Source: Rhodospirillales bacterium (GTDB lineage Bacteria > Pseudomonadota > Alphaproteobacteria > Rhodospirillales > UBA2165). Taken from it: a stretch of DNA of 64,000 bases. Location: NCBI GenBank assembly GCA_965213765.1, contig OZ243926.1:3481627-3545626 (forward strand), given 5' to 3'. Of the stretch, positions 3,794 to 62,030 are shown in pieces (within the stretch, counting starts at the first letter, position 1; each line of letters opens with the position of its first letter). The notes under the pieces are model-generated. The model was not told the origin of the DNA. It saw only the letters and a program-made list of their open reading frames with translations, and made no database searches. A program made the position numbers and the translations under genes.

Positions 3794-3954
3794 GCGGCGG
3801 AGATTAGCCAGACGCCCCGGAAGAGTCACATGATTTGCAAAATTTGCAACGAGAAGGCGGGTCCAGGGTCTGTACTCAATTAGGGGATTCTCCTTTTTGC
3901 GCCCTCTCCCCCCGTGCAGGGGGCGAGGGGACCCACGGCAAGCTCCCTCTCCCT

Positions 3955-5127
3955 GAGGATTCTTCTGCGAAAAGGGGATTCTCAATGGGTTTGTGATGTG
4001 ATTCAGTGTGGTTATCAACTGTTGGAGGCGTCGATGAGCGGCAAGGGTCAGCTGGGGTTTGCGGAAGCGTTTGTTTCTCCGGGTCTTGGGTCGAACCGGA
4101 AGCTTGATCGTCTGGATGCGTTGATCGACTGGTCTCCGCTGGAGCGCCTGGCGTCGGCGGTCCGCCCGGGGCGCCGGGGCCGTCCGCCCTATGCGCCGCT
4201 GTCGATGTTGAAGGCGCTTTATCTTCAGGTGCTTTACGATCTGTCGGACCCCGGTCTGGAGGAGGCGCTGCTGGACCGTCTGTCGTTCCGGCGCTTCTGC
4301 GGCTTTGCGCTTGACGGGGGCACGCCGGACGAGACCACGATCTGCCGCTTTCGCGGGGATGCGGGCGGGGTTCTGGAGGCGGCCTTCGAGGAGATCAACC
4401 GCCAGTTGGAGGCCGCCGGTCTGATCGTGCGCAAGGGCACGCTGATGGACGCCACGCTGGTGGCCGCGGCCTCGCGCCCGCCGCCCTACAAGGCCGGCGC
4501 GGGTGCCGGGCACGCGGGCGAGCCCGGCGCCGACTGGACCCGCAAGAAGGGGCGCGCCTTCTTCGGCTACAAGGCGCATCTCGGCGTCGACCAGGGGTCG
4601 GGGCTGATCCGGCGGGTGGTGCTGACCTCGGCCAAGACCTCCGAGAGCGAGGTCGCCGACCGGCTGATCTGCGGCGACGAGGCCGCGGTCTATGGCGACA
4701 AGGCCTACGAGCAGGCGGCGAGACGGGCGCGGCTCAAGGCGGCGGGGATCAAGGACCGGATCATGCACCGGCGGCACAAGCACATAGCCGCGCTGCCCCA
4801 TTGGCAGCAGCGCCGCAACGCTCTGATCGCGCGACGGCGCGCCCCGGTCGAGGCCGTGTTCTCCGCCCTCAAGCGCTTCTACGGGCTGCGCCGCGCCAAG
4901 AGCCGGTCCCGGGACAGGAACACGGCCCGCCTCTTCGCCGCCGCCGCCGTCTACAACATGCGCCGGGCCTGCCTGCTCGCCGGGCCGTGAGGGCGCGACG
5001 CGCCCGGAAACCGCAAAACGCACCGCAATCCGGCCCGCAAACGCCGCGGCAAACCCGCCGCCCGGTACCAAAACAGCCCCAACCCCCGACACAAACCCCT
5101 CCTTGCGACTTTCGCAGAAGAATCCTC
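3955..5127 (+). mobile_element. IS5-family insertion sequence, apparently complete (boundaries +/-4 bp)
   Basis: Perfect 18-bp terminal inverted repeats GAGGATTCTTCTGCGAAA (3955-3972) and TTTCGCAGAAGAATCCTC (5110-5127). Complementarity extends to 3951/5131. Encloses a single DDE transposase ORF. No clean direct target duplication is visible. Confidence 0.85.
4034..4990 (+). CDS. IS5-family DDE transposase
   Basis: ORF-track 3914..4990 trimmed to the ATG at 4034 (MSGKGQLGFAEAF...). IS5-group hallmarks GRPPYAPLSMLKALYLQVLYDLSDPGLEEALLDRLSFRRFCGF and C-terminal YGDKAY...R...VE..F..LK. Confidence 0.85.
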   Translation: MSGKGQLGFAEAFVSPGLGSNRKLDRLDALIDWSPLERLASAVRPGRRGRPPYAPLSMLKALYLQVLYDLSDPGLEEALLDRLSFRRFCGFALDGGTPDETTICRFRGDAGGVLEAAFEEINRQLEAAGLIVRKGTLMDATLVAAASRPPPYKAGAGAGHAGEPGADWTRKKGRAFFGYKAHLGVDQGSGLIRRVVLTSAKTSESEVADRLICGDEAAVYGDKAYEQAARRARLKAAGIKDRIMHRRHKHIAALPHWQQRRNALIARRRAPVEAVFSALKRFYGLRRAKSRSRDRNTARLFAAAAVYNMRRACLLAGP

Positions 5128-5283
5128 AGGGTCGGGGTGAGGGTGATATGGAAATTTCCCCCTCACCCAGCGCCGGGTAGGCTCGGCGTTCGCCTCGCCA
5201 ACCCTCCGCATCCCTCTCCCCCTGACGGGGGCGAGGGAACCCGATGCGGCAAGCCTCCTCTCCCCGCTCACCCGCTTGTCGTC

Positions 5284-5333
5284 ATCACCGGGTCGGTCAA
5301 TTCGTCCGAATTGACCTTATTTGACCCGGTGAT
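5284..5333. repeat. Nested palindromic hairpin element inside MITE copy A
   Basis: Outer arms ATCACCGGGTC (5284-5294) and GACCCGGTGAT (5323-5333). Inner arms GGTCAATTCG (5295-5304) and GAATTGACC (5308-5316). Confidence 0.6.
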
Positions 5334-5440
5334 CCACGCCTCGCGGCCGGCGAAGCCGGTCCGGCGGGCCCGGCCATGACGCGATCATTTTATGCCTCAC
5401 CGCCGCAACACCCCTATGGCGGCTCAATCGGGTCCGGACC

Positions 5441-7165
5441 CTAGCCGCTTTGCCGGGTGCTGCTCCGGGAGGCGATGATTTCGTGGAGCATGGCGTAATC
5501 ATCCTCGCGGAACGAATCGAGTGTGGCGGCGCTATCCTCGGCGCTGATGCCGATGGCACGGATAATGATGCCGCCGAGCTGAAGGCTGGCCTCGAGGGTT
5601 TCCGGAACCACGGCGGTTGCGCCCAAATCCTCGAGCTGGCGGACGTGGGTCAGGTCTCGGGCGCGGACATAAATCGCCAGGTCCGGATATGTGGATCGCA
5701 GTTCCCGCACCGCCCGGCTGACATCTTCCCGCTCGTTGATCGTGATGACCACCGCCCGGGCCCGGGCCGCACCCGCCGCGGTGATTACCGAGATTTCGGT
5801 GGCGGCGCCGTAATAGACCTCGGTTCCGTGATGCTGACACTGGGCGACGAGCCGGTAATCCCGGTCGAGGGCAATGTGGGGGGTGTTCGTGGCGTTGAGC
5901 ACCATGGCGACGGTCTGGCCGACCCGCCCGAACCCGATGATGATGATATGGTCTTCCAGCTCGCCGGCGGCCTTGCTGATGTCCGAGGCGGGCGGGATCA
6001 CGCCGGGGGTCATCCATTCGGCATACCTGTCGCCGACATAGGCCATCAGGGGCGTCAGCGCCATGGTGATGGTCACCGCGGCGAACAGTATGGCGCCCAT
6101 CTCGGGCGAGAGGATGCCGGCCGCCATGGCCGCGCCGAATATGACGAAGCCGAACTCCCCGCCCTGGCCAAGGATCAGGCCCACCCGCCCCGAAACTGTG
6201 GTCGACAGGCCAACGGCCCGGCACAGAAGGCCGATGACGATCGACTTCCCGATCAGCAGGCCGGCGACGATGCCGAGGATCGGCAGCCACTCGGCGACGG
6301 CCACCCGGAAATCGACCATCATGCCGACCGACATGAAGAACAGGCCGAGAAACAGCCCGCGAAACGGCCGGATATCGGCCTCGACCTGATGCCGGTACTC
6401 GGTCTCGGCGAGCAACAGTCCGGCGAGGAAGGCGCCCAACGCCATGGAGAGGCCGACCAGGGAGAAGACCCAGCCCGTACCCAGTACGACCAGCAAGGTG
6501 GCGGCAACGAACAGCTCGGTACTGCCGGACGCGGCGATCAGCCGGTAGACCGGCCGCAGCACCAGCCGGCCGGCGACGACGGCGACGACCAGTGCGAGAA
6601 CGGCTTTCAGGCCCGCCTCGCCGATCGCCGTCAGCAGGGAGGAGCCTTGCTCGTTCAGCAGCGGCACCAGGATCAACAACGGCACAATGATCAAATCCTG
6701 GAACAGCAAAACGGCGAAAGACATGGTGCCGTAGGGTGTGGCCCGCTCGCCGCGCTCGGTCAGCAGCTGCAGGACGAACGCGGTCGACGACAAGGCGAGG
6801 CCCGCCCCGATGACGATCGCCGCGTTGACGGAAATCCCGAACGCCAGCGCAGTCCCGAAGATGATGGCGCCGGTGAGCGCGACCTGGGCCGTGCCCAGAC
6901 CGAATACATAATTTCGGAGCTGCTTGAGCCGCCCGAAGGATAATTCAAGGCCGACGGTGAACAGCAGAAATACCACGCCGAACTCGGCCAGCGCCTGGGC
7001 GCCCTCGGCATCGCTGATGAAGCCGAAACCGTGGGGGCCGATGAGAATGCCGGCCGCCAGGTAGCCGATCACCGGGCTGGATTTCAGACGCTTGAGGAGG
7101 GGGACAATGACGATGGCGGCGACCAGAAAGATCAGGACGTCTGCGAGGATCGGCGAGTGATGCAT
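5441..7165 (-). CDS. Monovalent cation:proton antiporter-2 (CPA2) family, KefB/KefC-like K+ efflux protein with C-terminal TrkA-N domain
   Basis: ORF-track 574 aa. Multi-TM Na/H-exchanger region followed by the Rossmann motif HIIIIGFGRVGQTV. The stop TAG is part of the CTAG terminus of MITE copy A. Confidence 0.85.
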   Translation of the reverse strand: MHHSPILADVLIFLVAAIVIVPLLKRLKSSPVIGYLAAGILIGPHGFGFISDAEGAQALAEFGVVFLLFTVGLELSFGRLKQLRNYVFGLGTAQVALTGAIIFGTALAFGISVNAAIVIGAGLALSSTAFVLQLLTERGERATPYGTMSFAVLLFQDLIIVPLLILVPLLNEQGSSLLTAIGEAGLKAVLALVVAVVAGRLVLRPVYRLIAASGSTELFVAATLLVVLGTGWVFSLVGLSMALGAFLAGLLLAETEYRHQVEADIRPFRGLFLGLFFMSVGMMVDFRVAVAEWLPILGIVAGLLIGKSIVIGLLCRAVGLSTTVSGRVGLILGQGGEFGFVIFGAAMAAGILSPEMGAILFAAVTITMALTPLMAYVGDRYAEWMTPGVIPPASDISKAAGELEDHIIIIGFGRVGQTVAMVLNATNTPHIALDRDYRLVAQCQHHGTEVYYGAATEISVITAAGAARARAVVITINEREDVSRAVRELRSTYPDLAIYVRARDLTHVRQLEDLGATAVVPETLEASLQLGGIIIRAIGISAEDSAATLDSFREDDYAMLHEIIASRSSTRQSG

Positions 7166-7166
7166 C

Positions 7167-7607: not shown

Positions 7608-7733
7608 GTGATCTCCATGACCCCAAAATAGTTCGCATCCTTGGTCCTGCCCAGCCTGGATTGTTCGTCAAAGCGGTTCTCGCCCGGGCCGGTTTGGGAT
7701 AGGGTCCGCGCCGCCACATCAACGGCCTGAACC

Positions 7734-9889: not shown

Positions 9890-10380
9890 GCGGACGCCGC
9901 TTCGGTCTTCTCCCGCTGCCGGATGATCCACCAGACAATCACCGCGCCGGCCAGTTTGCTCAGCGTCTGGATCAGCACCGCAAAGGGCGAGCCGAACCCG
10001 GCCATGTAGAGAAACACCGCGCTATCGACCGGGGTGGCGACGATGCTGGAGAGCAGGATCCGCTGGGACAGGGTCCGGCCGGTGAAACTGTAGATGGCCC
10101 AGTCGATGAATTCGGCGACCAGGAAGGCCGCGACGCTGGCCATGGCGATCTGGGGGCTGGCCATGAAGAAGCTGATGGCGCCGCCGACAAGCATGGCGAT
10201 GATGACCCAGTGCCCGATTTCCCGCTGGGCGAAATCCCGGGAGACGAATATGAACCCGACGATCAAGGAAACCGGCGGCCATGCCGCGCCGTTCGGCAGG
10301 ATGATGGGATCGACCACGGAGAACGCCCAGTTCACGGCGACGATCAACGCGATGTAAATACCGGTCTGAAGACATTTCAT
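9886..10380 (-). CDS. VUT/YhhQ-family (DUF165) putative queuosine-precursor transporter
   Basis: ORF-track 9886..10416; start ambiguous, ATG at 10380 (MKCLQTGIY...) preferred. Polytopic membrane protein with [11 protein letters not shown]...[13 protein letters not shown]. Converges on tgt and shares the CTAG stop. Confidence 0.65.
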
Positions 10381-10544
10381 TCTTAAGCCCAACTCCTGAC
10401 GTCCGGCGAATGCCACGGGCGGCTAAATAGCACACCGGTGTGTATTGTCGAGCCTACAAAGACATTGATTTTCCCCGCGTCCCGACCATAGTGCGGCCAC
10501 GCCTTATCCAAGGTTCAACTCTTTCCGGTCGCTCGTTCGCCTTC

Positions 10545-11522
10545 ATGATCATTGCACTGCAAATCATCGGTGGATTCCTGCTGTTGCTGGGCGGGGCCCA
10601 GGTCATGGTCCGCGGCGCCGTCGCGCTGGCGCGGCGGTTCGGCATATCGACATTGGTTATCGGTATGACCGTTGTGGCCTTCGGGACCTCGGCGCCCGAG
10701 CTGCTGGTGTCTCTGAACGCGGCGCTGTCGGGTGCGCCGGGGTTGGCCGTCGGTAATGTGGTCGGTTCGAACATCGCGAATATTCTGCTGGTTCTCGGTG
10801 CGGCGGGCATGGTGGCGCCCATCGCCTGCGCGTCCACCGAGCTTCGCCGGGACGGAATCATATTGCTGGCCGGCACGCTGATTTTCTCGGCGCTTTCATT
10901 TCGCGGCGTGGTCGACGTCTGGTCGGGTGCCGTCCTGCTGATCGCCTTCTCCTATTTCCTCTGGAACTCCTACAAGCGTGAGGCCGCCGGTGAGGGCGGT
11001 GCCGCCGCCGGCATGGTCGAGGACGTCGAGAATTCGGCGATGCCGCCGGCAAATCTGCTTGTCGCGGTCCTGATGTTCCTTGCCGGTCTCGCGGCCCTGC
11101 TCGTCGGATCCGAGTTGGTGGTGCGTGGCGGCGTGGCGGCGGCCCGCCTGTTCGGCGTGAGTGAAGCGGTGATCGGGTTGACGGTGGTGGCCCTCGGCAC
11201 CTCGCTGCCCGAACTCGCCGTGTCGGTGGTTGCCGCCTATCGCGGCCACACGGATGTGGCGCTCGGCAATGTGGTTGGCAGCAACCTGTTCAATATTCTG
11301 GGGGTCATCGGCGTTGTCGCCGTGGTCACGCCGGTCACGGTCGAGGCCCGGGTGGTCAATTTCGACCTCTGGATCATGATCGGGGCGACGCTGCTGCTTC
11401 TGCCGTTCATAATGGGTGGCCTGCGTCAAATCGGCCGGGCGCCGGCGCTGGCCTTCCTGATCATGTATATCGCTTATATCGGCGCCATCGGCCTCGGCGT
11501 CGATCGTGTTATTCCTGCCTGA
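10545..11522 (+). CDS. Ca2+/Na+ antiporter, CaCA family (YrbG-like)
   Basis: ORF-track 10440..11522 trimmed to the ATG at 10545 (MIIALQIIGG...). Duplicated alpha-repeat motifs GTSAPELLVS and GTSLPELAVS. Confidence 0.85.
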   Translation: MIIALQIIGGFLLLLGGAQVMVRGAVALARRFGISTLVIGMTVVAFGTSAPELLVSLNAALSGAPGLAVGNVVGSNIANILLVLGAAGMVAPIACASTELRRDGIILLAGTLIFSALSFRGVVDVWSGAVLLIAFSYFLWNSYKREAAGEGGAAAGMVEDVENSAMPPANLLVAVLMFLAGLAALLVGSELVVRGGVAAARLFGVSEAVIGLTVVALGTSLPELAVSVVAAYRGHTDVALGNVVGSNLFNILGVIGVVAVVTPVTVEARVVNFDLWIMIGATLLLLPFIMGGLRQIGRAPALAFLIMYIAYIGAIGLGVDRVIPA

Positions 11523-11576
11523 TCTTCCAGGGACCGACTTCCTTGCGCAGCGGCACGGGACTTTTATGCTGCACCC

Positions 11577-12347
11577 ATGACCAATGAACCTTCCGGTACC
11601 GTCCTGATTACCGGCGCCGCCCGGCGCATCGGCAAGGCTATTGTCGACGCGCTGGCCGAGGATGGCTGGCGAATCGCGCTCCATTATGGCGGCTCGGCCG
11701 GCGAGGCCGAGGCCGGGGCAGCCGATCTCCGGGCGCGGGGCGCCGAGGTAACCCTCTACGGGGCCGACCTCCGCGACGAGGCCCAGGTCCGGGGATTGAT
11801 CCCACGGGTCGTCGACGAGATGGGCACTGTCGACTGTCTGGTCAATAACGCCTCGGTGTTTGAGCGCGACTCTCTCGGTGATGCTGCCCGGGAAAGCTGG
11901 GATGCGCACATGGAGGTCAATCTGCGGGCGCCATTCGTTCTCACGCAAGCCTTCGCGGGCCAGTACCGGGGCGAAAACGGTAATATTATCAATATTCTAG
12001 ACCAACGGGTGTGGAACCTGACGCCGCATTTTTCATCCTACACCTTGAGTAAGGCCGGTCTCTGGACCCTGACCCGGACCACCGCGCTGGCGCTGGCGCC
12101 CGCCATCCGCGTCAATGCGGTTGGACCGGGCCCGACCCTGCCTTCGCCGCGGCAGTCGGAAGATAGGTTTCGGGTACAGTGGGAGCGTACCCCTCTGGGC
12201 CGGCCGGTCGGCTCACAGGAAATTGCCTCGGCGGTGCGCTTTATCCTTGCGACGCCGTCGATGACCGGGCAAATGATTGCTCTCGACTCCGGACAGCATC
12301 TCGGCTGGGCTCCCCCGGCCGCCGATGCCGGTGACGAAGACGAATAG
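11577..12347 (+). CDS. Short-chain dehydrogenase/reductase (pteridine-reductase-like, adjacent to folB)
   Basis: ORF-track 256 aa. TGAARRIG cofactor motif and YTLSKAG catalytic Y-x3-K. Confidence 0.8.
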   Translation: MTNEPSGTVLITGAARRIGKAIVDALAEDGWRIALHYGGSAGEAEAGAADLRARGAEVTLYGADLRDEAQVRGLIPRVVDEMGTVDCLVNNASVFERDSLGDAARESWDAHMEVNLRAPFVLTQAFAGQYRGENGNIINILDQRVWNLTPHFSSYTLSKAGLWTLTRTTALALAPAIRVNAVGPGPTLPSPRQSEDRFRVQWERTPLGRPVGSQEIASAVRFILATPSMTGQMIALDSGQHLGWAPPAADAGDEDE

Positions 12348-12373
12348 ACCAATCGGGACGGGCCGATCCGACC

Positions 12374-12790
12374 ATGCCGCCATCTGATTCAAATGTGGTT
12401 CATGCCTTCCGGATTGCCGATGCCAAGACGTCGGTCCGGCATGTATTTATCCGCGACCTTACGCTGACCTGCTTCATCGGCGTCCATAAGCACGAACGCA
12501 AACAGAGCCAGCGCGTGCGGATCAATCTCGATCTGGCGGTGCAAGAGGGTGTCGCCGCGATCGACGACAGACTGGAGCATGTGGTGTGCTACGAGGACGT
12601 GGCGGACGGCATTCGGGCGCTGGTCGCGGACGGCCATGTCAGCCTGGTTGAGACATTGGCCGAACGGATCGCCGACATGTGCCTCTCCGATGAGCGGGTC
12701 ACCGTCGCCCGGGTCCGGATCGAAAAGCTCGACGTGTTCGAGGACGCTACAAGCGCCGGCGTGGAGATCGAGCGGTCCCGCATTTCCTGA
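12374..12790 (+). CDS. folB: Dihydroneopterin aldolase
   Basis: ORF-track 138 aa: FIRDLTLTCFIGVHKHERKQSQRVRINLDL...LVETLAERIA. Confidence 0.8.
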   Translation: MPPSDSNVVHAFRIADAKTSVRHVFIRDLTLTCFIGVHKHERKQSQRVRINLDLAVQEGVAAIDDRLEHVVCYEDVADGIRALVADGHVSLVETLAERIADMCLSDERVTVARVRIEKLDVFEDATSAGVEIERSRIS

Positions 12791-13215
12791 GCCGCTTCTT
12801 CGGCAACGGGGCGCAACCCATTGCGATTATGACATTTTATGGACGAAAGGGGCGCAAGTTGTGCACAGGATGCAGGGCTTTCGGGTTTGATCCCTGTGTT
12901 GCGGCGATGCCCTTTATATGACAGGGGTATGAATTAATTTTATTAAAAAATCGATTAATATCAAATAGTTAAAAAACTGCACCAATCATGTGCATTTTGT
13001 GCCGGCGACAAAAAAGCCAAGCTGCGGCGGGCAGTCGCACTGTTTTCAACAAGCTTATTCACAGCGTTGGCGGATATAATTCGACCAGAGCAAATCCCGA
13101 GTGGATGGACTCATCCGTGACGACGCATTTGCGGCAGAATATACTGATAGAGCGTTTCACGTTTCAGAAAAGACATGAACCGCTCTAGGGCCACGCCGAG
13201 GGTGTACGCGAAAGC

Positions 13216-20174: not shown

Positions 20175-20185
20175 GATATTCCCCT

Positions 20186-20239
20186 TTTCAGCCCCATTTC
20201 AGCCCCATTTCAGCCCCATTTCAGCCCCATTTCAGCCCA
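20186..20239. repeat. Tandem repeat, 11-bp unit TTTCAGCCCCA, four perfect units plus one 10-bp partial unit
   Basis: Read directly: units at 20186, 20197, 20208 and 20219 (perfect) and 20230 (TTTCAGCCCA). The array ends 12 bp upstream of the MBL-hydrolase ATG (20174, minus strand). Confidence 0.95.
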
Positions 20240-23060: not shown

Positions 23061-24368
23061 GTGATCAAGCGGTTTCTGCCTCGAAGCCTGCTCGGCAGAT
23101 CGGTGCTCATCATCGTGACGCCCCTGATTTTGCTGCAGGTCGTTTCGGCGGCGGTATTCTGGGAGAACCACTGGGACAAGGTGAGCGTGCGCCTTGCGCG
23201 CAACCTTGCCGGCGATATCAGCGCGCTGATTTTGCTGCTGCGGGAACGGGATCAACCGCCCGGTCGAAACAACACCGTCGGCATGGCAGCCCGAACCATG
23301 GGCCTGAACATCAACATGCGGCCTGGCGAAATTCTCGCCAATGCTCCGGCCAAAGTATCAAGCGGCTTTATCGAAAGCGTGTTGTTCGAGGCTTTGGATG
23401 AGGTGGTGAAGAAGCCGTTCGTCATCGACATGGAAGCCGTTGACCGCCATGTGCTGGTTTCCATACAACTCCAGGACGGGATTCTGGACATCGTCGCCAG
23501 CCGCAAGCGGCTGTTTAGCTCGACCACTTATGTGTTCGTCCTGTGGATGGTGGGCACGTCGCTGATCCTGTTCGCCGTCGCCATCATCTTTATGCGCAAT
23601 CAGGTGCGGCCGATCCGGCGTCTGGCGACGGCCGCGGATAGCTTCGGCAAGGGCCGGGACGCCCCAAATTTCAAGCCCGAGGGCGCTGCCGAGGTGCGGC
23701 GGGCGGCGTCGGCGTTCCTCGCCATGCGGGACCGGATTCAGCGCAATATCGCGCAGCGGACGGACATGTTGTCCGGCGTATCACACGATCTCCGGACGCC
23801 GTTGACACGGATGAAACTGCAATTGGCGATGCTCAAGGACAGCCAGGCGGCGGCGGACCTCAAGGAGGACGTCGCCGAGATGGAGCATATGCTGGAGGGT
23901 TACCTTGCCTTTGCCCGCGGCGAGGGTGACGAAGCCCCGGAACTTACCGACATCGGCGGCATGCTCGACGATGTGGTCGGGCAATCCCGGCGCAAAGGCG
24001 CCGCCGTCGACCTCCATACCGAGGGCGATATACAGGTCGCGGTGCGGCCGAATGCGTTCAAGCGCTGCGTCACCAACCTGGTCGAAAACGCCGGACGCTA
24101 CGGAGAGCACGTCTCGGTGCGGGCGGGCCAGCGCGGCGAGACCATAGAGATCACCATCGACGATGACGGTCCCGGCATTCCCGAGGATCAGCGGGGCGAC
24201 GCGTTCAAGCCGTTCTTCCGGCTCGATAATTCGCGGAACACCGGTACGGGCGGCGTCGGGTTGGGGTTGTCGATCGCCCGGGATGTGATCCGAGGGCACG
24301 GCGGTGATATCGATCTCGATCAATCGCCCTCGGGCGGTCTGCGCGCCCGGGTTATTCTGCCGATCTAG
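23061..24368 (+). CDS. EnvZ-like sensor histidine kinase (2 TM, HAMP, HisKA, HATPase)
   Basis: ORF-track 435 aa, GTG start. H-box SGVSHDLRTPLTRM, N-box NLVENAGRYG, G-boxes DDDGPGIP and GTGGVGLGLSIA. Confidence 0.85.
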   Translation: MIKRFLPRSLLGRSVLIIVTPLILLQVVSAAVFWENHWDKVSVRLARNLAGDISALILLLRERDQPPGRNNTVGMAARTMGLNINMRPGEILANAPAKVSSGFIESVLFEALDEVVKKPFVIDMEAVDRHVLVSIQLQDGILDIVASRKRLFSSTTYVFVLWMVGTSLILFAVAIIFMRNQVRPIRRLATAADSFGKGRDAPNFKPEGAAEVRRAASAFLAMRDRIQRNIAQRTDMLSGVSHDLRTPLTRMKLQLAMLKDSQAAADLKEDVAEMEHMLEGYLAFARGEGDEAPELTDIGGMLDDVVGQSRRKGAAVDLHTEGDIQVAVRPNAFKRCVTNLVENAGRYGEHVSVRAGQRGETIEITIDDDGPGIPEDQRGDAFKPFFRLDNSRNTGTGGVGLGLSIARDVIRGHGGDIDLDQSPSGGLRARVILPI

Positions 24369-24413
24369 AGCAGTTTCCGGCCAAATTGAACCGTTTGACC
24401 GGAAACTGCTCTA
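24366..24413. repeat. TAGAGC...GCTCTA palindromic element (copy P1), in terminator position between convergent genes
   Basis: TAGAGCAGTTTCCGG-N18-CCGGAAACTGCTCTA, 15-bp perfect arms. The first TAG is the envZ-like stop codon. Near-identical arms recur at 46568-46612. Confidence 0.7.
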
Positions 24414-37603: not shown

Positions 37604-38743
37604 ATGGCCGCCAGAAACAAACCCCCGTACCGTGCCGATCATGTGGGATCGCTGCTGCGCCCCGATGCGCTGTTGATCTCGCGCAACAAGTGGCACGATG
37701 GGGAAATCAGCCTCGACCTGCTGCGCGAACACGAAGACGCCTGCATCAAGGAAGCGGTCAAGTTGCAGGAGGATGTGGGTTTGACGGCCGTCACCGACGG
37801 CGAGTACCGGCGTGCCAGCTTCCACGTCGATTTCATCCAGAAGGTCATCAACATCGACGCGCCGTGGGATTTCGAACGGGCGGTGTCGGTCTCCGATGAA
37901 AACAAGGAGCATGAAGCCAGGGATGAAGCCAAGGCGACCCCCTTCGTGCCCAAGGTGGTCGGCAAGATGGCGCTGCCCGAGGGCGGCATCGAGGTGGAAA
38001 ATTACAAGTTCACCTCGTCGCTCACCGATCATCCGGTGAAGGTCACCCTGCCGTCGCCGACGATGACCCATTTCCGGGGCGGCCGCGATGCCATCGACAA
38101 GGAGGCCTATCCCGAGCTCGGCACCTTCTTCGCCGACCTTTCCAGGCTTTACCGCGAGGAGTTGGCGCTCCTGGCCGAAGCCGGCTGCCGCTACGTCCAG
38201 TTCGACGACACCAATCTGGCTTTTCTCTGCGATGAGAAAATGCGACGGGGTGCGATCGACCGGGGCGAGGATCCGGACGAATTGCCGGCGACCTATGCGG
38301 CGCTGATCAATGATTCCATCCGCGACCGCCATCCCGACATGGCTGTCTGCATCCACCTCTGCCGGGGGAACGCCAAGAGCCAGTGGTTCGCCTCCGGCGG
38401 CTACGAACCGGTGGCCGAGAAGATGTTCAATCTCACCGACGTGGACGGATTTTTCCTCGAGTATGACGATGAGCGCTCGGGCGGCTTCGAGCCGCTGCGC
38501 TTCGTGCCCGAGGGCAAGCAGGTGGTGCTTGGCCTGGTGACCACCAAACGCTCGGATTTGGAGAGCAAGGACGAGTTGAAGGCGCGGATCGAGGAGGCGT
38601 CCAAATACGTCGATGCCGATCAGCTTTGCCTCAGCCCCCAGTGCGGGTTTTCCTCCAACGCCGTCGGCAATCTGGTGACGGTCAATGACGAAATCGCCAA
38701 GTTCCGGCTGATCATCGAGACCGCGGAGGAGGTCTGGGGCTGA
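37604..38743 (+). CDS. Single-domain MetE-like protein (cobalamin-independent methionine synthase II family), paralog a
   Basis: ORF-track 379 aa: YRADHVGSLLRP...VTDGEYRR. Putative Zn ligands IHLCRGN, LEYDDE, SPQCGFSS. Lacks the N-terminal half of canonical two-domain MetE. Confidence 0.8.
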   Translation: MAARNKPPYRADHVGSLLRPDALLISRNKWHDGEISLDLLREHEDACIKEAVKLQEDVGLTAVTDGEYRRASFHVDFIQKVINIDAPWDFERAVSVSDENKEHEARDEAKATPFVPKVVGKMALPEGGIEVENYKFTSSLTDHPVKVTLPSPTMTHFRGGRDAIDKEAYPELGTFFADLSRLYREELALLAEAGCRYVQFDDTNLAFLCDEKMRRGAIDRGEDPDELPATYAALINDSIRDRHPDMAVCIHLCRGNAKSQWFASGGYEPVAEKMFNLTDVDGFFLEYDDERSGGFEPLRFVPEGKQVVLGLVTTKRSDLESKDELKARIEEASKYVDADQLCLSPQCGFSSNAVGNLVTVNDEIAKFRLIIETAEEVWG

Positions 38744-38745
38744 AT

Positions 38746-38955
38746 CACCCTCACCCCAACCCTCTCTTCAAGGGAGAGGGATGCGAGCCGAATCCCGTCG
38801 CCCCCTTCAGGGGGAGAGGGTTAGGGTGAGGGGGGCCTCCGTGTCCGCCCGGTCTCCAGAGGAAACCGGATTCGCATGGCGGTTCCGCGACGCCGAAGCG
38901 GCCTTTGGCTGCGAAGGCCGGAAGGGGGGGGGAGCCGGAGCGGCGCGCTTCGACA
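38746..38955. repeat. GAGGG-hairpin mosaic intergenic repeat (element D)
   Basis: CCCTCACCCCAACCCTCTC...GGGGAGAGGGTTAGGGTGAGGGG long hairpin, plus module CGCCGAAGCGGCCTTTGGCTGCGAAGGCCGGAAGGGGGG. Both are shared (second module inverted) with 61868-62030. Fills the gap between convergent genes. Confidence 0.6.
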
Positions 38956-45297: not shown

Positions 45298-46431
45298 CTA
45301 GACCCCGCCCCAGATCTCGTTGGCGGTGGTGACCACCAGCTCCAGCTTCCGGCGCTGGTCATCCATGGTGATCTTGTTGCCTTCCTCGGTGGATGAGAAT
45401 CCGCACTGGGGCGCGATGCCCAGCTGATCGATGTCGGCGTACCTGGCCGCTTCGTCGAAATTCCGTTTGAGGCCGTCCACGGGTTCGAGCTCCGGCGTCT
45501 TGGTGGTGATGAAGCCGGGCAGCACCCGCTTATCGCCTTTGGGCAGCAGGCGGAGCGGCTCCAGCCCGCCGGCGCGGTCGGAGTCGTATTCCATGAAGAA
45601 GACGTCGGCGTCCGTTTTGTTGAAGATGGCGTCCGCCGCCGGATCGTAGGCGCCCTCGGCGACCCAGGTGGATTGGAAATTGCCGCGGCAGAGATGCATG
45701 CCGATGGTCATGTCGTCGGGCCGGTCCTTGATCGCCTCGTGCATCATCCGGGCGTACATTTCGATCAGTTCATCCGGATCCTCGCCGCCGGCCTCTTTTT
45801 CCGCCCGGATCTTCGGATCGCACAGATAGGCGAAGAAGATGTCGTCCATCTGCAGATAGCGGCATCCGGCTTGGTAGAAGGCGTCCACCGCCTGGGCGTA
45901 CGTCTTGGCGATGTCGGCGAACAAGACGTCCCGGTCCGCATATTCGGGCGGCTGGATATCCGATTTGAGCAATCGGAAATGACAGGCGCTGGGGCCGGGG
46001 ATGGAGATTTTCGGCGTCTTCGCCGCCACCGAGGCCAGGTAGGTGAAATGCCCGATCATCGGATGATCGGCGGGGAACGACAGCGGTCCCGAGATCACCG
46101 GGACAACCGCCAAGGCAAAGGTGCCGACGGCCCCCTCCGAGGAACGTTCCGCCAGATCGAGCCCATTGAGCCCGGCCATGAAATCGTAATGCCAGTAGGC
46201 GCGCCGGAACTCGCCGTCGGTGACCACCGGCAGGCCGAGTTCCTCCTGGAGCTTGACCGCCTCGATAATTTCGGCGTCCTCGGCTTCCTTGAGGTCGGCG
46301 GGTGTTTCGCCCTGGCCGAACCGGGCCAGCGCTCCTTGTTCAAACAGTTGCTCCCGCGCCCGCCTGACCCGTTCCGGCCGAAGCAGGCTGCCCACGTGAT
46401 CGGCCCGCGGCCGGATTTTCCCGTTCGTCAT
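45298..46431 (-). CDS. Single-domain MetE-like protein, paralog b
   Basis: ORF-track 45298..47463 trimmed to the ATG at 46431 (MTNGKIRPRADHVGSLLRP...). MHLCRGN, MEYDSD, APQCGFSS. The upstream part of the track ORF is antisense to the neighbouring gene. Confidence 0.8.
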   Translation of the reverse strand: MTNGKIRPRADHVGSLLRPERVRRAREQLFEQGALARFGQGETPADLKEAEDAEIIEAVKLQEELGLPVVTDGEFRRAYWHYDFMAGLNGLDLAERSSEGAVGTFALAVVPVISGPLSFPADHPMIGHFTYLASVAAKTPKISIPGPSACHFRLLKSDIQPPEYADRDVLFADIAKTYAQAVDAFYQAGCRYLQMDDIFFAYLCDPKIRAEKEAGGEDPDELIEMYARMMHEAIKDRPDDMTIGMHLCRGNFQSTWVAEGAYDPAADAIFNKTDADVFFMEYDSDRAGGLEPLRLLPKGDKRVLPGFITTKTPELEPVDGLKRNFDEAARYADIDQLGIAPQCGFSSTEEGNKITMDDQRRKLELVVTTANEIWGGV

Positions 46432-46567: not shown

Positions 46568-46612
46568 GAGCAGTTTCCGGTCAAATGGATCAATCGGGCC
46601 GGAAACTGCTCT
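46568..46612. repeat. TAGAGC-type palindromic element (copy P2) in divergent promoter region
   Basis: GGAGCAGTTTCCGG-N17-CCGGAAACTGCTCT. Arms are identical to copy P1 (24366-24413) except at the outermost bases. Confidence 0.65.
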
Positions 46613-48836: not shown

Positions 48837-49979
48837 ATGGTGAAGGGTCCGTTCCGCGCCGATCACGTCGGGAGCCTGCTGCGCCCGCCGGAGCTTCTTG
48901 AGGCCCGCGAGCAATTCAAGAACGGAGAGATGGATGCCGGCGCCCTTCGCGAGGTCGAGGACCGGCTGATCCGCCGTGCGGTAAAGTTGGAGGAAGAGAC
49001 CGGCATCCAGCCGGTGACCGACGGCGATTACCGCCGCGATTCGTGGTCCAACGATTTCCTGGATGCCATCGAAGGCGTGAAGAGCGCCTCGCCGCCGGCC
49101 AAGCGCTCCGACGATCACCACACGACGGAGGTCGGCGGCGTCGTGAAGACCTTCAAGCTGCCCGCGCCGACCACGCACGGCAGGCTGGGCTGGCCGGCGG
49201 GCGGCATTCAGCGCCGTTCGTTCAACTTCCTCAAGGGCGAAACCTCCCGCACGCCCAAGGTCACCATGCCGTCGGTGAGCATGCTGCATTTTCGGGGCGG
49301 CCGCGGCGGCGTTTCCGAGGATGCCTATCCGGACATGGAGGAGTTTTTCAAGGATGCCTCCGGGATTTGGCGCGCGGAAATTCTCGACCTCGCGGCGCAA
49401 GGCTGCCGCTACGTGCAGCTTGACGACACCAATCTTGCTTACCTCTGCGACGAGCGGCTGCGGGAAAACGTGCGCGAGCTGGGCGAGGACCCGGATGATC
49501 TCCCCCATCTCTACGCCCGGCTGATCAACGATGCCATCGCCGGCCGGCCGGAGGATATGGCCGTTGCCATTCACCTTTGCCGGGGCAACTCCTTCAGCCG
49601 GGGCCACGCCGAAGGCGGATACGAACATGTGGCCGAAGCCATCTTCAACGAGGTCAAGGTGGACGGGTTCTTCCTCGAATATGACGACGAGCGCTCGGGC
49701 GGGTTCGAGCCGTTGCGCTTCGTTCCCAAAGGATCAGGCGGGCCCAGGATCGTCCTCGGCATCGTCACGTCCAAGTTCGGCGAGTTGGAGGACAAGGATG
49801 GCCTCAAACGCCGCCTCGACGAAGCCGCCCGATACATGCCCCCGGAACAGATGTGCCTCTCCCCTCAATGCGGGTTTGCCAGCCACACCGGCGGCAACCT
49901 GCTGAGCGAGGAACAGCAATGGGCCAAGCTCCGCCATTGCGTCGAGGTGGCCGAAGAGGTTTGGGGCACCGCGATTTAA
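48837..49979 (+). CDS. Single-domain MetE-like protein, paralog d
   Basis: ORF-track 380 aa: FRADHVGSLLRP...VTDGDYRR, IHLCRGN, LEYDDE, SPQCGFAS. Shares the 22-aa block DGFFLEYDDERSGGFEPLRFVP with paralog a. Confidence 0.8.
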   Translation: MVKGPFRADHVGSLLRPPELLEAREQFKNGEMDAGALREVEDRLIRRAVKLEEETGIQPVTDGDYRRDSWSNDFLDAIEGVKSASPPAKRSDDHHTTEVGGVVKTFKLPAPTTHGRLGWPAGGIQRRSFNFLKGETSRTPKVTMPSVSMLHFRGGRGGVSEDAYPDMEEFFKDASGIWRAEILDLAAQGCRYVQLDDTNLAYLCDERLRENVRELGEDPDDLPHLYARLINDAIAGRPEDMAVAIHLCRGNSFSRGHAEGGYEHVAEAIFNEVKVDGFFLEYDDERSGGFEPLRFVPKGSGGPRIVLGIVTSKFGELEDKDGLKRRLDEAARYMPPEQMCLSPQCGFASHTGGNLLSEEQQWAKLRHCVEVAEEVWGTAI

Positions 49980-50057: not shown

Positions 50058-50678
50058 ATGGAGTTCTTCGCCTGGGGGGTGAACCATTCGGGAGTCGCCG
50101 GCAAGCGCTCGGCGATTATTCGGCAACACTGGGACTTCATCGACCGCTACAAGGACAGGCTGATCGCGCGGGGACCGGTGCTCGATCCGCGCGACCCGTC
50201 GCGGGTCACCGGCTCCATCCATATCGCGGAGCTCGATGACTGGCAGGAGGCCAAGCGCTTCGTCTACGAGGAGCCGTTCCACAAAGCCGGTTTGTTCGAA
50301 AACGTGCTCATCCGGCGTTTCGAGCTGGAACTCGGCCGCACTCAGTTTGAATTCGAGAGCGCGGGCGATCTGCCCCGTTTCTTCATCTATTGTTCCCGGG
50401 CCCGCGGCAACGAGACCGGCCCGGAGCGGGTGGCCGATGAATACGACGCCTATTGCGCCGGGTTCGACGCCAATTTCCTGTGCCGCGGCGCGCTGGTCGA
50501 CGACCGGGGCGGCCGGGCCGGCAGCATTTATTTGATGGAGATGGCCGACACGGACGCCGCCGCCGAATTCCTGGCGGGTGAGCCCTACCTCAAGGCCGGG
50601 CTCTACGGCGACGTGCAGGTCCATCGGTGGACTCCGGGCGGACCCGAAAACCTCAACCGACGCGGCGAGCTTGCCTGA
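50058..50678 (+). CDS. Tandem (double) YciI-like domain protein
   Basis: ORF-track 206 aa. Two about 100-aa halves end ...EEPFHKAGLFENVLIRRFE and ...GEPYLKAGLYGDVQVHRW. Confidence 0.6.
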   Translation: MEFFAWGVNHSGVAGKRSAIIRQHWDFIDRYKDRLIARGPVLDPRDPSRVTGSIHIAELDDWQEAKRFVYEEPFHKAGLFENVLIRRFELELGRTQFEFESAGDLPRFFIYCSRARGNETGPERVADEYDAYCAGFDANFLCRGALVDDRGGRAGSIYLMEMADTDAAAEFLAGEPYLKAGLYGDVQVHRWTPGGPENLNRRGELA

Positions 50679-50707
50679 GGGCCCGTCACCCCGATAACCT
50701 GCCCCCC

Positions 50708-52003
50708 ATGCCGCCGCCGCTCGTCGACCTGCCCGCCGGATTTCCGCCTCTCGATGTCAGGGTCTGCACGCCCGAGCGGCGCGAGCCCGGCTACATGATT
50801 CTCTCTCTCGGCAGGGGCACCCGCGCCGTCCAGCAGAGATCCGACTTCGAAGCCCTGGTAGCCATCGATCGGGAGGGCCGCCCGGTTTGGTGCTGGCAGT
50901 CGGCCTCGTCGGTCATGGATGTGAAGCGCACGCCCCGCAATACGTTGCTGGTGGTAACCACGGACGGCTGCATCCAGGAGATCGACGCGGGCGGGGCGAC
51001 GTTGCGAAAGTGGAGCACGCCGGGTGCGTCGCCCAGCCTGGCGGGTAATGAAATCCCGGTCGACACCCTCTATTTCCATCATGCGGTTCGCGAGTTGCCC
51101 AACGGAAATCTGGCGGCGCTCTCAATTTCCACCGGCGAGTTCGATGACTACCCCCTCAGCTTGATGGACCCCGGTGCCGGCCGGGGAAAACGCAAACTGG
51201 TGGCCGATGTGCTGGTCGAATTTACCCCTGAAGGCGATGTCGTCCACGCCCACGATTTTTTCGACATTCTCGATTCGCACCGGACCGCCTACGGACTCGA
51301 TACCCCGTTCTGGACCATTTGCGGCGTGGTGCCCGACGGCGCCGATCTGACCCATGCCAACGGTCTCGTCCACGACCCCGTCGACGACAGCTTCATCACC
51401 ACCGTCCGCCACCAGGATTGTGTGATCAAGATCGACCGGGCGACCGGCGCGCTGAAATGGATCCTGGGCACGCCGGAGGGCTGGACCGGGGACTGGGCGG
51501 ACAAGGTGCTCAAGCCGGTGGGCGAAACGTCGTGGCACTGGCATTCCCACGATCCGAGCATCATGGCCGACGGCTCGATCCTGCTGTTCGACAACGGTGA
51601 CAGCGGCGCCTTTCCGCCGGCGCCGCCCCTCAACCTCGATGACTGCGTTTCACGCGCCATCGCCTACCGCGTGGACGAGGCGGCGGGCACGGTGGAGCAG
51701 GTGTGGTCTTTCGGCGGTCCGGAACACGGGACGCCGTACTCCATGTATATCAGCGGCGCCCACGAACTGCCGGCGACCGGCAATGTCTTCGTTACCTTCG
51801 GCGGTATCATCCTGAACCGCGACGGTGAGCGGGTCCACCTGCCGCCGGCGGGCCACGGCTCGGCGGAAGTCTATGAGGTCACCCGCGCGGACGATTCGGA
51901 AATTCTGTTCCACGCCGAGATCAGCAACCGCCACACCGACGCGGAGGTCGGCTGGGGGATCTTCCGCGCCGAATGGGTGCCGGACGACTTCTTCGGCGGC
52001 TAG
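50708..52003 (+). CDS. Arylsulfotransferase (ASST)-like beta-propeller protein, no signal peptide
   Basis: ORF-track 50627..52003 trimmed to the ATG at 50708. FHHAVRELPNGN, LTHANGLVHDP and HWHSHDPS segments recall ASST-family proteins. The stop TAG lies within the CTAG terminus of MITE copy C. Confidence 0.55.
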   Translation: MPPPLVDLPAGFPPLDVRVCTPERREPGYMILSLGRGTRAVQQRSDFEALVAIDREGRPVWCWQSASSVMDVKRTPRNTLLVVTTDGCIQEIDAGGATLRKWSTPGASPSLAGNEIPVDTLYFHHAVRELPNGNLAALSISTGEFDDYPLSLMDPGAGRGKRKLVADVLVEFTPEGDVVHAHDFFDILDSHRTAYGLDTPFWTICGVVPDGADLTHANGLVHDPVDDSFITTVRHQDCVIKIDRATGALKWILGTPEGWTGDWADKVLKPVGETSWHWHSHDPSIMADGSILLFDNGDSGAFPPAPPLNLDDCVSRAIAYRVDEAAGTVEQVWSFGGPEHGTPYSMYISGAHELPATGNVFVTFGGIILNRDGERVHLPPAGHGSAEVYEVTRADDSEILFHAEISNRHTDAEVGWGIFRAEWVPDDFFGG

Positions 52004-52145
52004 GGTCGGGACTCAATTGAGCCGCCATTCGATTGTTGCGGCGATGAAGACGGCGCGGCACAGGGTCCCTCGCCCCCGTCAGGGGGAGAGAGGCAGGGTG
52101 AGAGCGCGCAAAAAGGAGACTCCCCTAATGGAATCCGTACCCTAG
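52000..52145. repeat. MITE-like repeat, copy C (minimal 146-bp form, inverted relative to A and B)
   Basis: Bounded by CTAG at both ends. Ends CTAGGGTCGGGACTCAATTGAGCCGCCAT and TCCCCTAATGGAATCCGTACCCTAG form imperfect terminal inverted repeats. Core hairpin CCCTCGCCCCCGTCAGGGGGAGAG. Confidence 0.7.
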
Positions 52146-52206
52146 AGCCGATCATGGTTTGTCGGAATCGCTTTGCGATGCCGACAATCCATGTGAATCG
52201 GCTCTA
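52143..52206. repeat. TAGAGC...GCTCTA palindromic element (copy H1)
   Basis: TAGAGCCGATCATGGTTTGTCGG...CCGACAATCCATGTGAATCGGCTCTA. Its first TAG is shared with the terminal CTAG of MITE copy C. Confidence 0.6.
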
Positions 52207-52217
52207 CACTATTAAAA

Positions 52218-52282
52218 TAGATCGGATTCACATGTTTTGACAAAACCGCGCCGTGGTTCCGTCAAAACATGACCCGATCTAG
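52218..52282. repeat. Palindromic element (copy H2), same family as H1 in opposite orientation
   Basis: TAGATCGGATTCACATGTTTTGAC-N19-GTCAAAACATGACCCGATCTAG. Each arm matches the opposite arm of H1. Confidence 0.6.
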
Positions 52283-54029: not shown

Positions 54030-55238
54030 ATGGGCGGCCTGCTGGACGGTATCCGGGTGATCGAACTCAGCCACGTGATGGCCGCCCCCACCTGCGGGCT
54101 GCATCTCTCCGACATGGGCGCCGACGTGATCAAGGTCGAGCGGTTGCCGGGCGGCGACAACGTCCGCCGGAACGGGCCGTTCGTCGACGGCGAGTCCGCC
54201 GGGTTCGCGATGATGAACCGCGGCAAGCGGGGCGTGGCGCTGGATCTCCGCTCCGGCGACGGCCGCGCGGTCCTGCGGCGGCTGGCGGACCGGGCGGATG
54301 TGTTTATCGAAAACTACCGCCGGGGCGCCATGGAGCATTACGGCGTCGGCTGGGAGAGTGTCCGCGGGACCAACCCCCGGCTGGTCTACTGCACCGTCTC
54401 CGGTTACGGCGCGACCGGACCGCTGGCCGGGCAGGGCGGTTTCGATCTGGTGGCGCAGGGGATGAGCGGACTGATGAGCATCACCGGCGAAGGTCCGGGC
54501 CGGCCGCCGGTCAAGGTCGGCGCGCCGGTGACCGACATCACCGCCGGGACGCTGGCCGCCATGGGGATCCTCGGCGCGCTGGTCGCCCGCGGGCGCACCG
54601 GCGAAGGGCAGTATGTGGACACGTCGCTCTACGAGGCCGGGATCATGCACACCTATTGGCAGTCGGCGATCTACCTCAATTCCGGTGAGGTGCCGATGGC
54701 GATGGGGTCGGCCCATCCGATGATGGCGCCCTATCAGGCGTTCCCCACCGCCGACGGATGGATCAATGTGGGAAGCGCCAACCAGGGTCTGTGGCTCAAG
54801 CTGATCGGGCTCTTGGGCGCGCCGGAACTGGCGGACGACGACCGGTTCGCCGAACCGCCGCAGCGGATCGAAAACCTGGATCGGCTGGTGGGGGTGCTGA
54901 CCCCTCTGTTTCAGGCCAAATCCACCGCCGAGTGGCAGGCGCTGCTTGACGGGGCGGGCATTCCCGCCGGGCCGGTCTACGATGTCGCGCAGATGGCGGC
55001 CGATCCGCAGACCCAAGCCCGCGACATGATCCGCGAGACCGAGACCCATGAGGGCTCGGCCATGCGGGTGCTGGGTCATCCGGTGAAGTACTCCGCCGCC
55101 GAAACCCCGGTGCGGCTGCCCGGCCCGGCCCTCGGCGAGCACAACCGCGAGGTGCTTCTCGAGTTCGGCTATGACGACGCTGAAATCAATGCCTTTGAGG
55201 AATCCGGTGCTATCGGCGGCTCCGGCGGCACGGACTAG
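54030..55238 (+). CDS. Class III CoA-transferase (CaiB/BaiF family)
   Basis: Tail of ORF-track 53799..55238, ATG at 54030 (MGGLLDGIRVIELSHVMAAPTCGLHLSDMGADVIKVE...GFDLVAQGMSGLMS). The stop TAG lies within the CTAG terminus of MITE copy B. Confidence 0.85.
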   Translation: MGGLLDGIRVIELSHVMAAPTCGLHLSDMGADVIKVERLPGGDNVRRNGPFVDGESAGFAMMNRGKRGVALDLRSGDGRAVLRRLADRADVFIENYRRGAMEHYGVGWESVRGTNPRLVYCTVSGYGATGPLAGQGGFDLVAQGMSGLMSITGEGPGRPPVKVGAPVTDITAGTLAAMGILGALVARGRTGEGQYVDTSLYEAGIMHTYWQSAIYLNSGEVPMAMGSAHPMMAPYQAFPTADGWINVGSANQGLWLKLIGLLGAPELADDDRFAEPPQRIENLDRLVGVLTPLFQAKSTAEWQALLDGAGIPAGPVYDVAQMAADPQTQARDMIRETETHEGSAMRVLGHPVKYSAAETPVRLPGPALGEHNREVLLEFGYDDAEINAFEESGAIGGSGGTD

Positions 55239-55692
55239 GGTCTGTACTCAATTAGGGGATTTTCCTTTTTGCGTCCTCTCACCCTGCCCCTCTCCCCCAA
55301 GGAAGGGGGCGAGGGAACCCACCGAAACTCCCTCTCCCTCCGGGAGAGGGCCGGGGTGAGGGTGGGAGTGAGCGTGAGGGTGATATGGAAATTCCCCCTC
55401 ACCCAGCTACGGCTATGGCTCGCAGGCTCGCCAAGCCTCCGCATCCCTCTCCCCCTGACGGGGGCGAGGGAACTTAATCCGGCAACGCGGCTACTCCCTC
55501 TCCCTCTCTGAGGGAGAGGGTCGGGGTGAGGGTGATATGGAAATTCCCCCTCACCCAGCTCCGGGTAGGCTTGGCGTTCGCCTCGCCAACCCTCCGCATC
55601 CCTCTCCCCCTGACGGGGGCGAGGGACCTTGCGCCGCGCTGTCCTCATCGCCGCGACACTCATATGGCGGCTCAATCGGGTCCGAACCTTAG
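55235..55692. repeat. MITE-like repeat, copy B (458 bp, with tandemly duplicated internal module)
   Basis: Starts CTAGGGTCTGTACTCAATTAGGGGA and ends ATGGCGGCTCAATCGGGTCCGAACCTTAG. Internal about 135-150-bp module present twice (55327-55472 and 55493-55627). Confidence 0.75.
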
Positions 55693-61867: not shown

Positions 61868-62030
61868 GCAACAATGTTTTCCCTCACCCCAACCCTCTCA
61901 AGGAGGGAGAGGGATAGGGTGAGGGGGATTGTCAATTCACTCCCACCCCATTCTCTCATTGGCCCTCCCCCCTTCCAGCCTTCGTAGCCGAAGGCTGCTT
62001 CGGCGGACCGGGCCAAGGGGGAGGGAGCAA
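61868..62030. repeat. GAGGG-hairpin mosaic intergenic repeat (element E)
   Basis: CCCTCACCCCAACCCTCTCAAGGAGGGAGAGGGATAGGGTGAGGG hairpin, plus CCTTCCAGCCTTCGTAGCCGAAGGCTGCTTCGGCG module (inverted copy of the module in element D). Confidence 0.55.

Follow-up and report, generated by a model that had tools for sequence, protein, structure and literature searches.

Why would a small non-coding repeat end, three times within one stretch of a bacterial genome, precisely on the stop codon of the adjacent gene? This question is posed by 64,000 nucleotides of DNA from Rhodospirillales bacterium (NCBI GenBank assembly GCA_965213765.1, contig OZ243926.1, positions 3,481,627 to 3,545,626 of the forward strand), a stretch that is referred to here as the window and whose positions are counted from its first letter. 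It carries three copies, termed A, B and C, of a miniature inverted-repeat transposable element (MITE), which abut genes encoding a KefB-like protein, a CoA-transferase and an arylsulfotransferase (ASST), respectively. It is very probable that this family comprises internal-deletion derivatives of an 842-849-bp element of the IS427/IS711 type, within the IS5 family of insertion sequences (IS), which are steered to CTAG and to gene ends.

Three elements and the stop codons at their ends

MITE C occupies positions 52003..52142 on the minus strand (140 bp), with its B-end, derived from the right inverted repeat (IRR), at 52003, its A-end, derived from the left inverted repeat (IRL), at 52142, and a single central hairpin at 52067-52090. 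MITE B (55238..55689, plus strand, 452 bp) has its A-end at 55238 and its B-end at 55689, and its interior consists of hairpin modules with an internal duplication of about 152 bp; the orthologous copy in the related locus L141 is a version of about 255 bp. MITE A (3866..5441, plus strand) runs from an A-end at 3866 to a B-end at 5441 and is split by an unrelated IS; its overall span of 3863-5444 is long because this 1.18-kb IS (about 3954-5128) was inserted within it, and in metagenome contig L113, which is 98% identical to window positions 2926-13174, the copy is uninterrupted, measures 442 bp and lacks the resident IS. In this delimitation, the first base of the element itself is the G of CTAG; the adjoining TA represents target duplication, and the C or G beyond it belongs to the host. 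The TA flanking the A-end of MITE A has decayed to CA.

The initial annotation, made from the sequence alone, had described three related elements with imperfect terminal inverted repeats (TIRs), a core hairpin and terminal tetranucleotides of the CTAG type, and all of these sequence statements hold. When up to three mismatches are allowed, the TIR consensus TAGGGTCYGKACYCRATTRRG has exactly six matches in the window, at 3864, 5443(-), 52001, 52144(-), 55236 and 55691(-), against 0.01 expected in 64 kb from shuffled sequences, and the corresponding terminal tetranucleotides are CCAG, CTAG, CTAG, CTAG, CTAG and TTAG. Direct reading of A-end against B-end shows 16 identical positions out of 22. 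The hairpin CTCTCCCCCTGACGGGGGCGAGGG is present without mismatch at 5214, 52067(-), 55447 and 55602 (none expected by chance), with a variant at 3906 and a one-mismatch copy outside any element at 38795. Across the window and related loci the MITEs are non-coding and measure 103-452 bp. The copies in the window are old, being diverged, decayed at their ends and common to the 98% identical relative, and they are probably no longer mobile.

As had also been proposed, the TAG of a terminal CTAG serves as the stop codon in all three cases, and the genes concerned are real according to their domain matches. The kefB-like open reading frame (ORF; 5441-7165(-), 574 aa, Na_H_Exchanger and TrkA_N domains) terminates with a TAG at 5441..5443 on the minus strand, inside the terminal CTAG of MITE A, that is made of the TA duplication and the terminal base of the element. 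The ASST ORF (50627-52003(+), 458 aa) ends likewise with a TAG inside the terminal CTAG of MITE C, composed of TA and G52003 of the element, while the TAG of the family III CoA-transferase (55236..55238, plus strand; ORF end 55238) consists of TA and the first G of MITE B. For the one window gene whose exact protein was looked up, no identical entry is recorded.

Origin of the family

The parentage of these elements is revealed by their ends. A blastn search of copy C against plasmids returned one match, to a truncated IS5 transposase gene on pCB82_1 of Bradyrhizobium sp. CB82, whose 3' end is 83% identical to the MITE B-end over 55 nt. The CB82 transposase has the C-terminus ...RYDKLARNFLAGAFIAAAAIWWLN*, with its stop inside the inverted repeat, and the MITE B-end, read as its reverse complement, encodes LIAATLIWRLN*, which corresponds to the last 11 transposase codons. 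In at least 32 metagenome loci an A-end and a B-end lie 842-849 bp apart and enclose orfA and orfB, two ORFs of a full-length IS that are joined by a frameshift at AAAAGGGGGG. The fused orfAB protein matches the NCBIfam model NF033580 (transpos_IS5_3) with 299 bits and contains DUF4096 and DDE_Tnp_1/_1_2, and tblastn places it among IS427/ISMpo7-type elements. The closest copy in the plasmid collection (74% amino acid identity) is that of Dinoroseobacter shibae pDSHI04, the ends of which read C-TA-GGGTCCGTACTCAATTAG...GAGTCTGGACCC-TA-G. Thus, the TIRs of the MITE are homologous to both ends of an autonomous IS5-family (IS427-type) IS.

Further copies are numerous: a B-end pattern from which CTAG had been omitted was found at 15 loci in five metagenome-assembled genomes (MAGs) of uncultured Rhodospirillales, and an A-end pattern, likewise without CTAG, at no fewer than 120 metagenome loci, at least 17 of which lie on contigs of LXNI01, the assembly that holds the 98% relative L113. 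The family is therefore not confined to the three copies of the window. A 141-bp architecture, consisting of an A-end, one hairpin and a B-end, recurs with 82-90% identity and unrelated flanks in MITE C and in loci L019 and L050, and a 273-328-bp type is present at five loci (L048, L060, L123, L136 and L092); a 103-bp copy contains no hairpin. The MITE moved as a unit. The initial annotation had proposed a non-autonomous element mobilised in trans, and this proposal gains support from the sequence, as the ends match both ends of the IS of about 845 bp and the same derivatives occur at unrelated loci.

Target site and empty sites

With regard to the target, the A-end pattern is preceded by CTAG in 107 of 119 cases and by TTAG in 6 (among the matches listed, in which hits were not dereplicated). 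The left flank of several full-length copies reads CTAG and the right flank CTAA, and the flanks of a Paracoccus relative read C-TA...TA-A; such CTAG/CTAA pairs fit a TA duplication within CTAA, with IS termini GGG...CCC, and do not fit a 4-bp duplication. 

Two orthologous empty sites decide the question. Locus L142 is syntenic over ASST-EamA-ECH-CoA-transferase (CoA-transferase 95% identical) and contains a single CTAG, ...ttcttcggcggCTAGgggtcctcatcctccgc, where the window and the 98% relative L141 read ...cggcggCTAG, then MITE C, a second CTAG, two small palindromic units and CTAGgggccgtcatcctccgc. On the basis of this empty site (...ttcttcggcggCTAGgggtcctcatcc), the TA duplication of MITE C can be assigned to 52001..52002 for the gene-proximal copy and to 52143..52144 for the distal copy, the latter being also used by the adjoining small palindromic elements. 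In locus L145 (KefB 92% identical) the sequence is ...gacggtTAGcccgttgcaaaacatgtgactcttccgg, in which the kefB TAG runs straight into what is, in the window, the sequence on the far side of MITE A. Hence, the TA-MITE-TA of the window corresponds in both loci to one (C/T)TAG stop, so that CTAG or TAG is single when the site is empty and duplicated when it is filled. The CTAG target preference that had been suggested initially is thus borne out by the A-end flanks and the two empty sites, while the simplest account of the duplication itself is TA within YTAR, as in IS711, rather than all four bases.

No empty site was present among the loci first collected, and two candidates were rejected. In L139 (ASST 90% identical at the amino acid level) synteny with the window stops precisely where the ASST ORF does, at a CTAG. 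Beyond this stop lie two TAGGGT... stretches (L139 5290-5430, set against window 52000), possibly the decayed remnants of TIRs; a rearrangement breakpoint at the element is possible. L140 has a different C-terminus and no CTAG.

Stop codons in the wider family

The association with stops extends beyond the window. Of 18 B-ends found by pattern, 10 coincide with the stop codon of an ORF that is 80 or more codons long. Four more, in L006, in L012 and in L009 and L015, which are orthologous, amount to three independent sites; there the junction stop has been mutated to CAG or TCG, and the ORF reads 9 codons into the TIR up to an in-frame TAG, yielding a TIR-encoded protein tail that ends in ...GPDSIEPP*. 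L008, an ortholog of L009 and L015, has kept a TAA stop. Six further B-ends, found by nhmmer, include three exact stops. When ends were dereplicated and a codon-position GC filter was applied, 7 of 23 MITE A-ends and 11 of 22 MITE B-ends were on gene stops, and 17 of the 23 complete MITEs had at least one end on a stop. In two of these, that of L123 and the 103-bp copy in L002 (1960-2062), the ends coincide on either side with stops of convergent genes; each sits in a convergent-stop CTAG, and the stop is retained by both genes. The window itself contains, at 9886 and 19311, single CTAGs that form the overlapping stops of convergent genes, with TAG on both strands.

An oriented mechanism was suspected for a time, as in the first sample, which was collected via the B-end, 10 B-ends were exactly on stops and 4 were in frame, out of 18, versus 1 of 10 A-ends. 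This bias was gone in the second, independently collected sample, obtained via the A-end, in which the two ends were equally often on stops (5 vs 5; overall 14 vs 7, not significant), and the idea was dropped.

CTAG scarcity as a probable guide to gene ends

The availability of the target provides much of the explanation. In this genome of 64% GC, the window contains 20 CTAG against 214 expected, an approximately 10-fold depletion, and CTAG is far rarer there than other 4-bp palindromes with the exception of TTAA and TATA. By inspection, 11 of 15 repeat-independent CTAG sites in the window are on gene stops. Over 330 kb, comprising the window and related loci, 125 free CTAG sites were counted, that is, sites outside elements and away from locus ends, against 1118 expected; a strict classifier for stop position assigned 48 of them to stops (38%), 16 to gene interiors and 61 to other positions. 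The initial annotation had argued that CTAG is mostly available at stops, and this argument is sustained in part, by the depletion and by the inspected sites of the window, with 48 of 125 free sites on stops under the strict classifier.

The following sequence of events is the most probable. Internal deletion of the parent IS left about 38 bp of its left end (the A-end) and about 50 bp of its right end (the B-end), between which lie one or more GC-rich hairpin modules, also free-standing elsewhere in the genome. We infer that the TIRs of about 22 bp are recognised in trans by transposase supplied from a full-length copy, and that this enzyme would insert the element at the TA of a (C/T)TA(G/A) site, the TA being duplicated. 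Every inward junction reads TAG because the inverted repeat begins with G, and consequently an insertion into a TAG or TAA stop always rebuilds TAG and leaves the gene intact. A large share of the surviving CTAG sites consist of a C followed by a TAG stop, and intragenic insertions would presumably be purged by selection. The rebuilt stop, the depletion of CTAG and the purging of intragenic copies would together leave most surviving copies exactly at gene ends.

Several observations weigh against this explanation, at least in its simplest form. Stop contact is more frequent for MITEs (17 of 23) than for free CTAG sites (48 of 125; p 0.002), and an excess persists when the comparison is restricted to non-intragenic free CTAG sites (p 0.011), so that MITEs are 3.6-4.5 times enriched on stops over free CTAG sites (p 0.002-0.011) and target availability alone may not account for the whole excess. 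Where both flanks read CTAG, a TA duplication is indistinguishable from a CTAG duplication. In the relatives that lack MITE B and its TIRs (L142 and L143), the CoA-transferase gene closes with TGA, two to four codons sooner, and the spacer is unrelated; because both the gene end and the spacer differ, the insertion of MITE B cannot be reconstructed, and MITE B may now supply the stop of this gene. Finally, a full-length copy of about 845 bp was not seen in the 64-kb window or, among the matches listed, in the LXNI01 loci, of which there are at least 17. Nevertheless, target availability accounts for much of the stop association, and the residual excess is attributed mainly to counter-selection of other insertions, false negatives of the classifier and CTAGs created by other repeat families, with something more being possible.

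Alternative explanations

The residual excess lends itself to a different view, namely that these are domesticated gene-end modules, in which selection keeps a copy for its stop, for a short C-terminal extension or for an RNA 3'-end hairpin. This view, which we regard as quite improbable, draws on the enrichment over free CTAG sites, on the alignment of the gene frame to the junction at 12 of 14 informative sites of the B-end set, on the much stronger decay of distal A-ends in that set, on the GPDSIEPP tails that arose at three independent sites, and on the last codons of the gene at MITE B, which differ from those of element-less relatives. These points have to be set against the absence of any orientation bias from the A-end set, the fact that relatives at 87-95% protein identity dispense with the element, and the possibility of explaining the excess by selection against other insertions together with CTAGs from other repeat families. 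Moreover, a terminator scan for a GC hairpin followed by a U tract found no intrinsic terminator on the sense strand at MITE C or MITE B, Rfam searches at gathering and E-value thresholds returned nothing relevant at the elements, and copy C folds little better than shuffled sequences (z = -1.5); the earlier suggestion that the hairpins act as terminators or RNA stabilisers is therefore left without support. Similarly, it is unlikely that the elements constitute gene-end cassettes that insert at stops beyond CTAG availability, whose proximal end is selected for its stop, and that occasionally provide a 9-residue tail (GPDSIEPP) or a 3'-UTR (untranslated region) hairpin; if true, such a reading would imply a family of IS-derived gene-end cassettes in uncultured Rhodospirillales.

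Other alternatives concern the descent of the elements. Interiors differ between copies and are built of modules that also occur alone, and solo B-ends exist (L005/L011, L012 and L015), as would be anticipated if each copy were an independently decayed full-length IS that never moved as a small unit. However, independent decay would not yield identical breakpoints and identical foreign filler, as are encountered in the 141-bp architecture at three unrelated loci (82-90% identity) and in the 273-328-bp type at five, which renders this account very unlikely. TA duplication is typical of IS630/Tc1-mariner elements, and IS630 prefers CTAG; the interior hairpins, for their part, have a REP-like appearance, with matches in the intergenic DNA of Azospirillum, Sphingomonas and enterobacteria. 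An origin as an IS630/Tc1-mariner-derived MITE, or as a REP/BIME repeat moved by a RAYT transposase, can nonetheless hardly be credited, given that both ends align with those of an IS encoding a transposase that matches the IS5 model NF033580 with 299 bits, that the B-end encodes a C-terminus typical of the IS5-type family, and that REP elements have neither TIRs nor target duplications, while the present unit has 22-bp TIRs and a TA duplication. Descent from an IS427/IS711-type parent by internal deletion is consequently the reading adopted here, and the interior modules alone may be of the REP/BIME kind.

Resident IS and other repeats of the window

The IS that interrupts MITE A (3954..5128, plus strand; TIR TGAGGATTCTTCTGCGAAA; transposase ORF 3914-4990) belongs to another subgroup of the IS5 family. 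It sits in a hairpin module of MITE A, and its transposase matches NF033581 at 258 bits and carries DUF772 and DDE_Tnp_1. It had been considered at the outset not to be the mobiliser of the MITEs, and the different protein model (NF033581 vs NF033580) and the unrelated TIRs agree with this. Its insertion is recent because it is absent from the 98% identical L113; its target duplication is undefinable against L113 owing to extra hairpin deletions in both sequences.

Hairpin modules are also found in the spacer of the relatives that lack MITE B (L142, L143) and match intergenic DNA of plasmids from Azospirillum, Sphingomonas, E. coli, Enterobacter and Klebsiella; they are independent repeats. 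Solo modules of the form CCCTCACCC...CCCTCTC...GGGAGAGGG...GGGTGAGGG lie at 38744-38836 and 61881-61929, just 3' of genes and without TIRs.

MITE C is adjoined by a pair of short palindromes from another repeat family (AGCCGATCATG...CATGTGAATCGGCT and ATCGGATTCACATG...CATGACCCGAT; 52145..52279), each (C)TAG-bounded. They are not in the empty site of L142, and the two halves occur separately in loci L008 and L009 of other Rhodospirillales MAGs; these palindromes resemble additional miniature elements that target CTAG. A third palindromic family, CTAGAGCAGTTTCCGG...CCGGAAACTGCTCTA, is present in the window at 24365-24413 and 46568-46612, in L002 at 4809-4849 and in L048 at 391-428; one of the window copies begins at the CTAG stop of a 439-codon ORF, and the copies in L002 and L048 adjoin a MITE end, with which they have the CTAG in common.

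Other repeats of the window include a tandem array at 20181-20238, with an 11-bp unit (CCCCATTTCAG) in about 5 copies, and the paralogous stretches 37700-38514 and 48978-49732 (also, inverted, 45536-45661 and 46178-46287), which are 72-87% identical at a spacing of 11,218 bp. At least one of the genes concerned, ORF 48837-49979, has a counterpart in relatives whose sole match is a faint one to Meth_synt_2 (MetE-like).

Relation to known elements and significance

It has been reported that IS711 is 842 bp long, contains two ORFs and duplicates the TA of YTAR, and that its termini read GGG...CCC (PMC2266754). The parent resembles IS711/IS6501 of Brucella and IS427 of Agrobacterium in size (842-849 vs 842 bp), in imperfect inverted repeats of about 20 bp, in two overlapping ORFs joined by a frameshift and in the duplicated TA of YTAR, and IS427-annotated transposases are among its tblastn matches. 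IS711 is associated with the small palindromic repeats Bru-RS1/2, and the present elements are likewise associated with small palindromes. The present family differs in that the window has only non-coding derivatives, and its target is stricter than YTAR, the first position being C in 107 of 119 ends among the matches listed. For MITEPsy1, a derivative of the IS5-family element ISPsy2 in Pseudomonas syringae, insertion at CTAG/YTAA has been described and mobilisation demonstrated experimentally (PMC3189936). It is similar in being a small IS5-derived MITE that inserts at CTAG or YTAA with a duplication, but its length is 100 nt, its TIRs are unrelated, the duplication reported for it comprises 4 nt, it lacks a mosaic hairpin interior, and no stop-codon association has been reported for it. 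The interior of the present MITEs is reminiscent of BIME/RIME-type repeats, being a variable mosaic of GC-rich hairpin modules also found alone; BIMEs and REPs, on the other hand, are devoid of IS-derived TIRs and TA duplication, both of which the window MITEs possess.

In the literature searched, no earlier report of CTAG-targeting MITEs that concentrate on stop codons was found, which does not prove that there is none. The parent is an ordinary IS5 element of the IS427/IS711 type, CTAG-targeting IS5 MITEs are already known, and the pile-up on stops follows from a known target specificity and the known depletion of CTAG, so that no new mechanism is revealed. The main value of the locus lies in its clean empty sites, its self-rebuilding stop codon and the occasional protein tails encoded by a TIR. 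For MAGs of this lineage, such elements are relevant to the annotation of gene ends, C-terminal extensions and assembly breaks, as well as to the dating of insertions and the interpretation of synteny breaks. In conclusion, this family shows in a worked case how the landing sites of mobile DNA are set jointly by what a transposase prefers as its target and by the oligonucleotide bias of the host genome: an element that seeks CTAG is steered onto stop codons and rebuilds the stop with its own first base, which makes its insertions nearly harmless.

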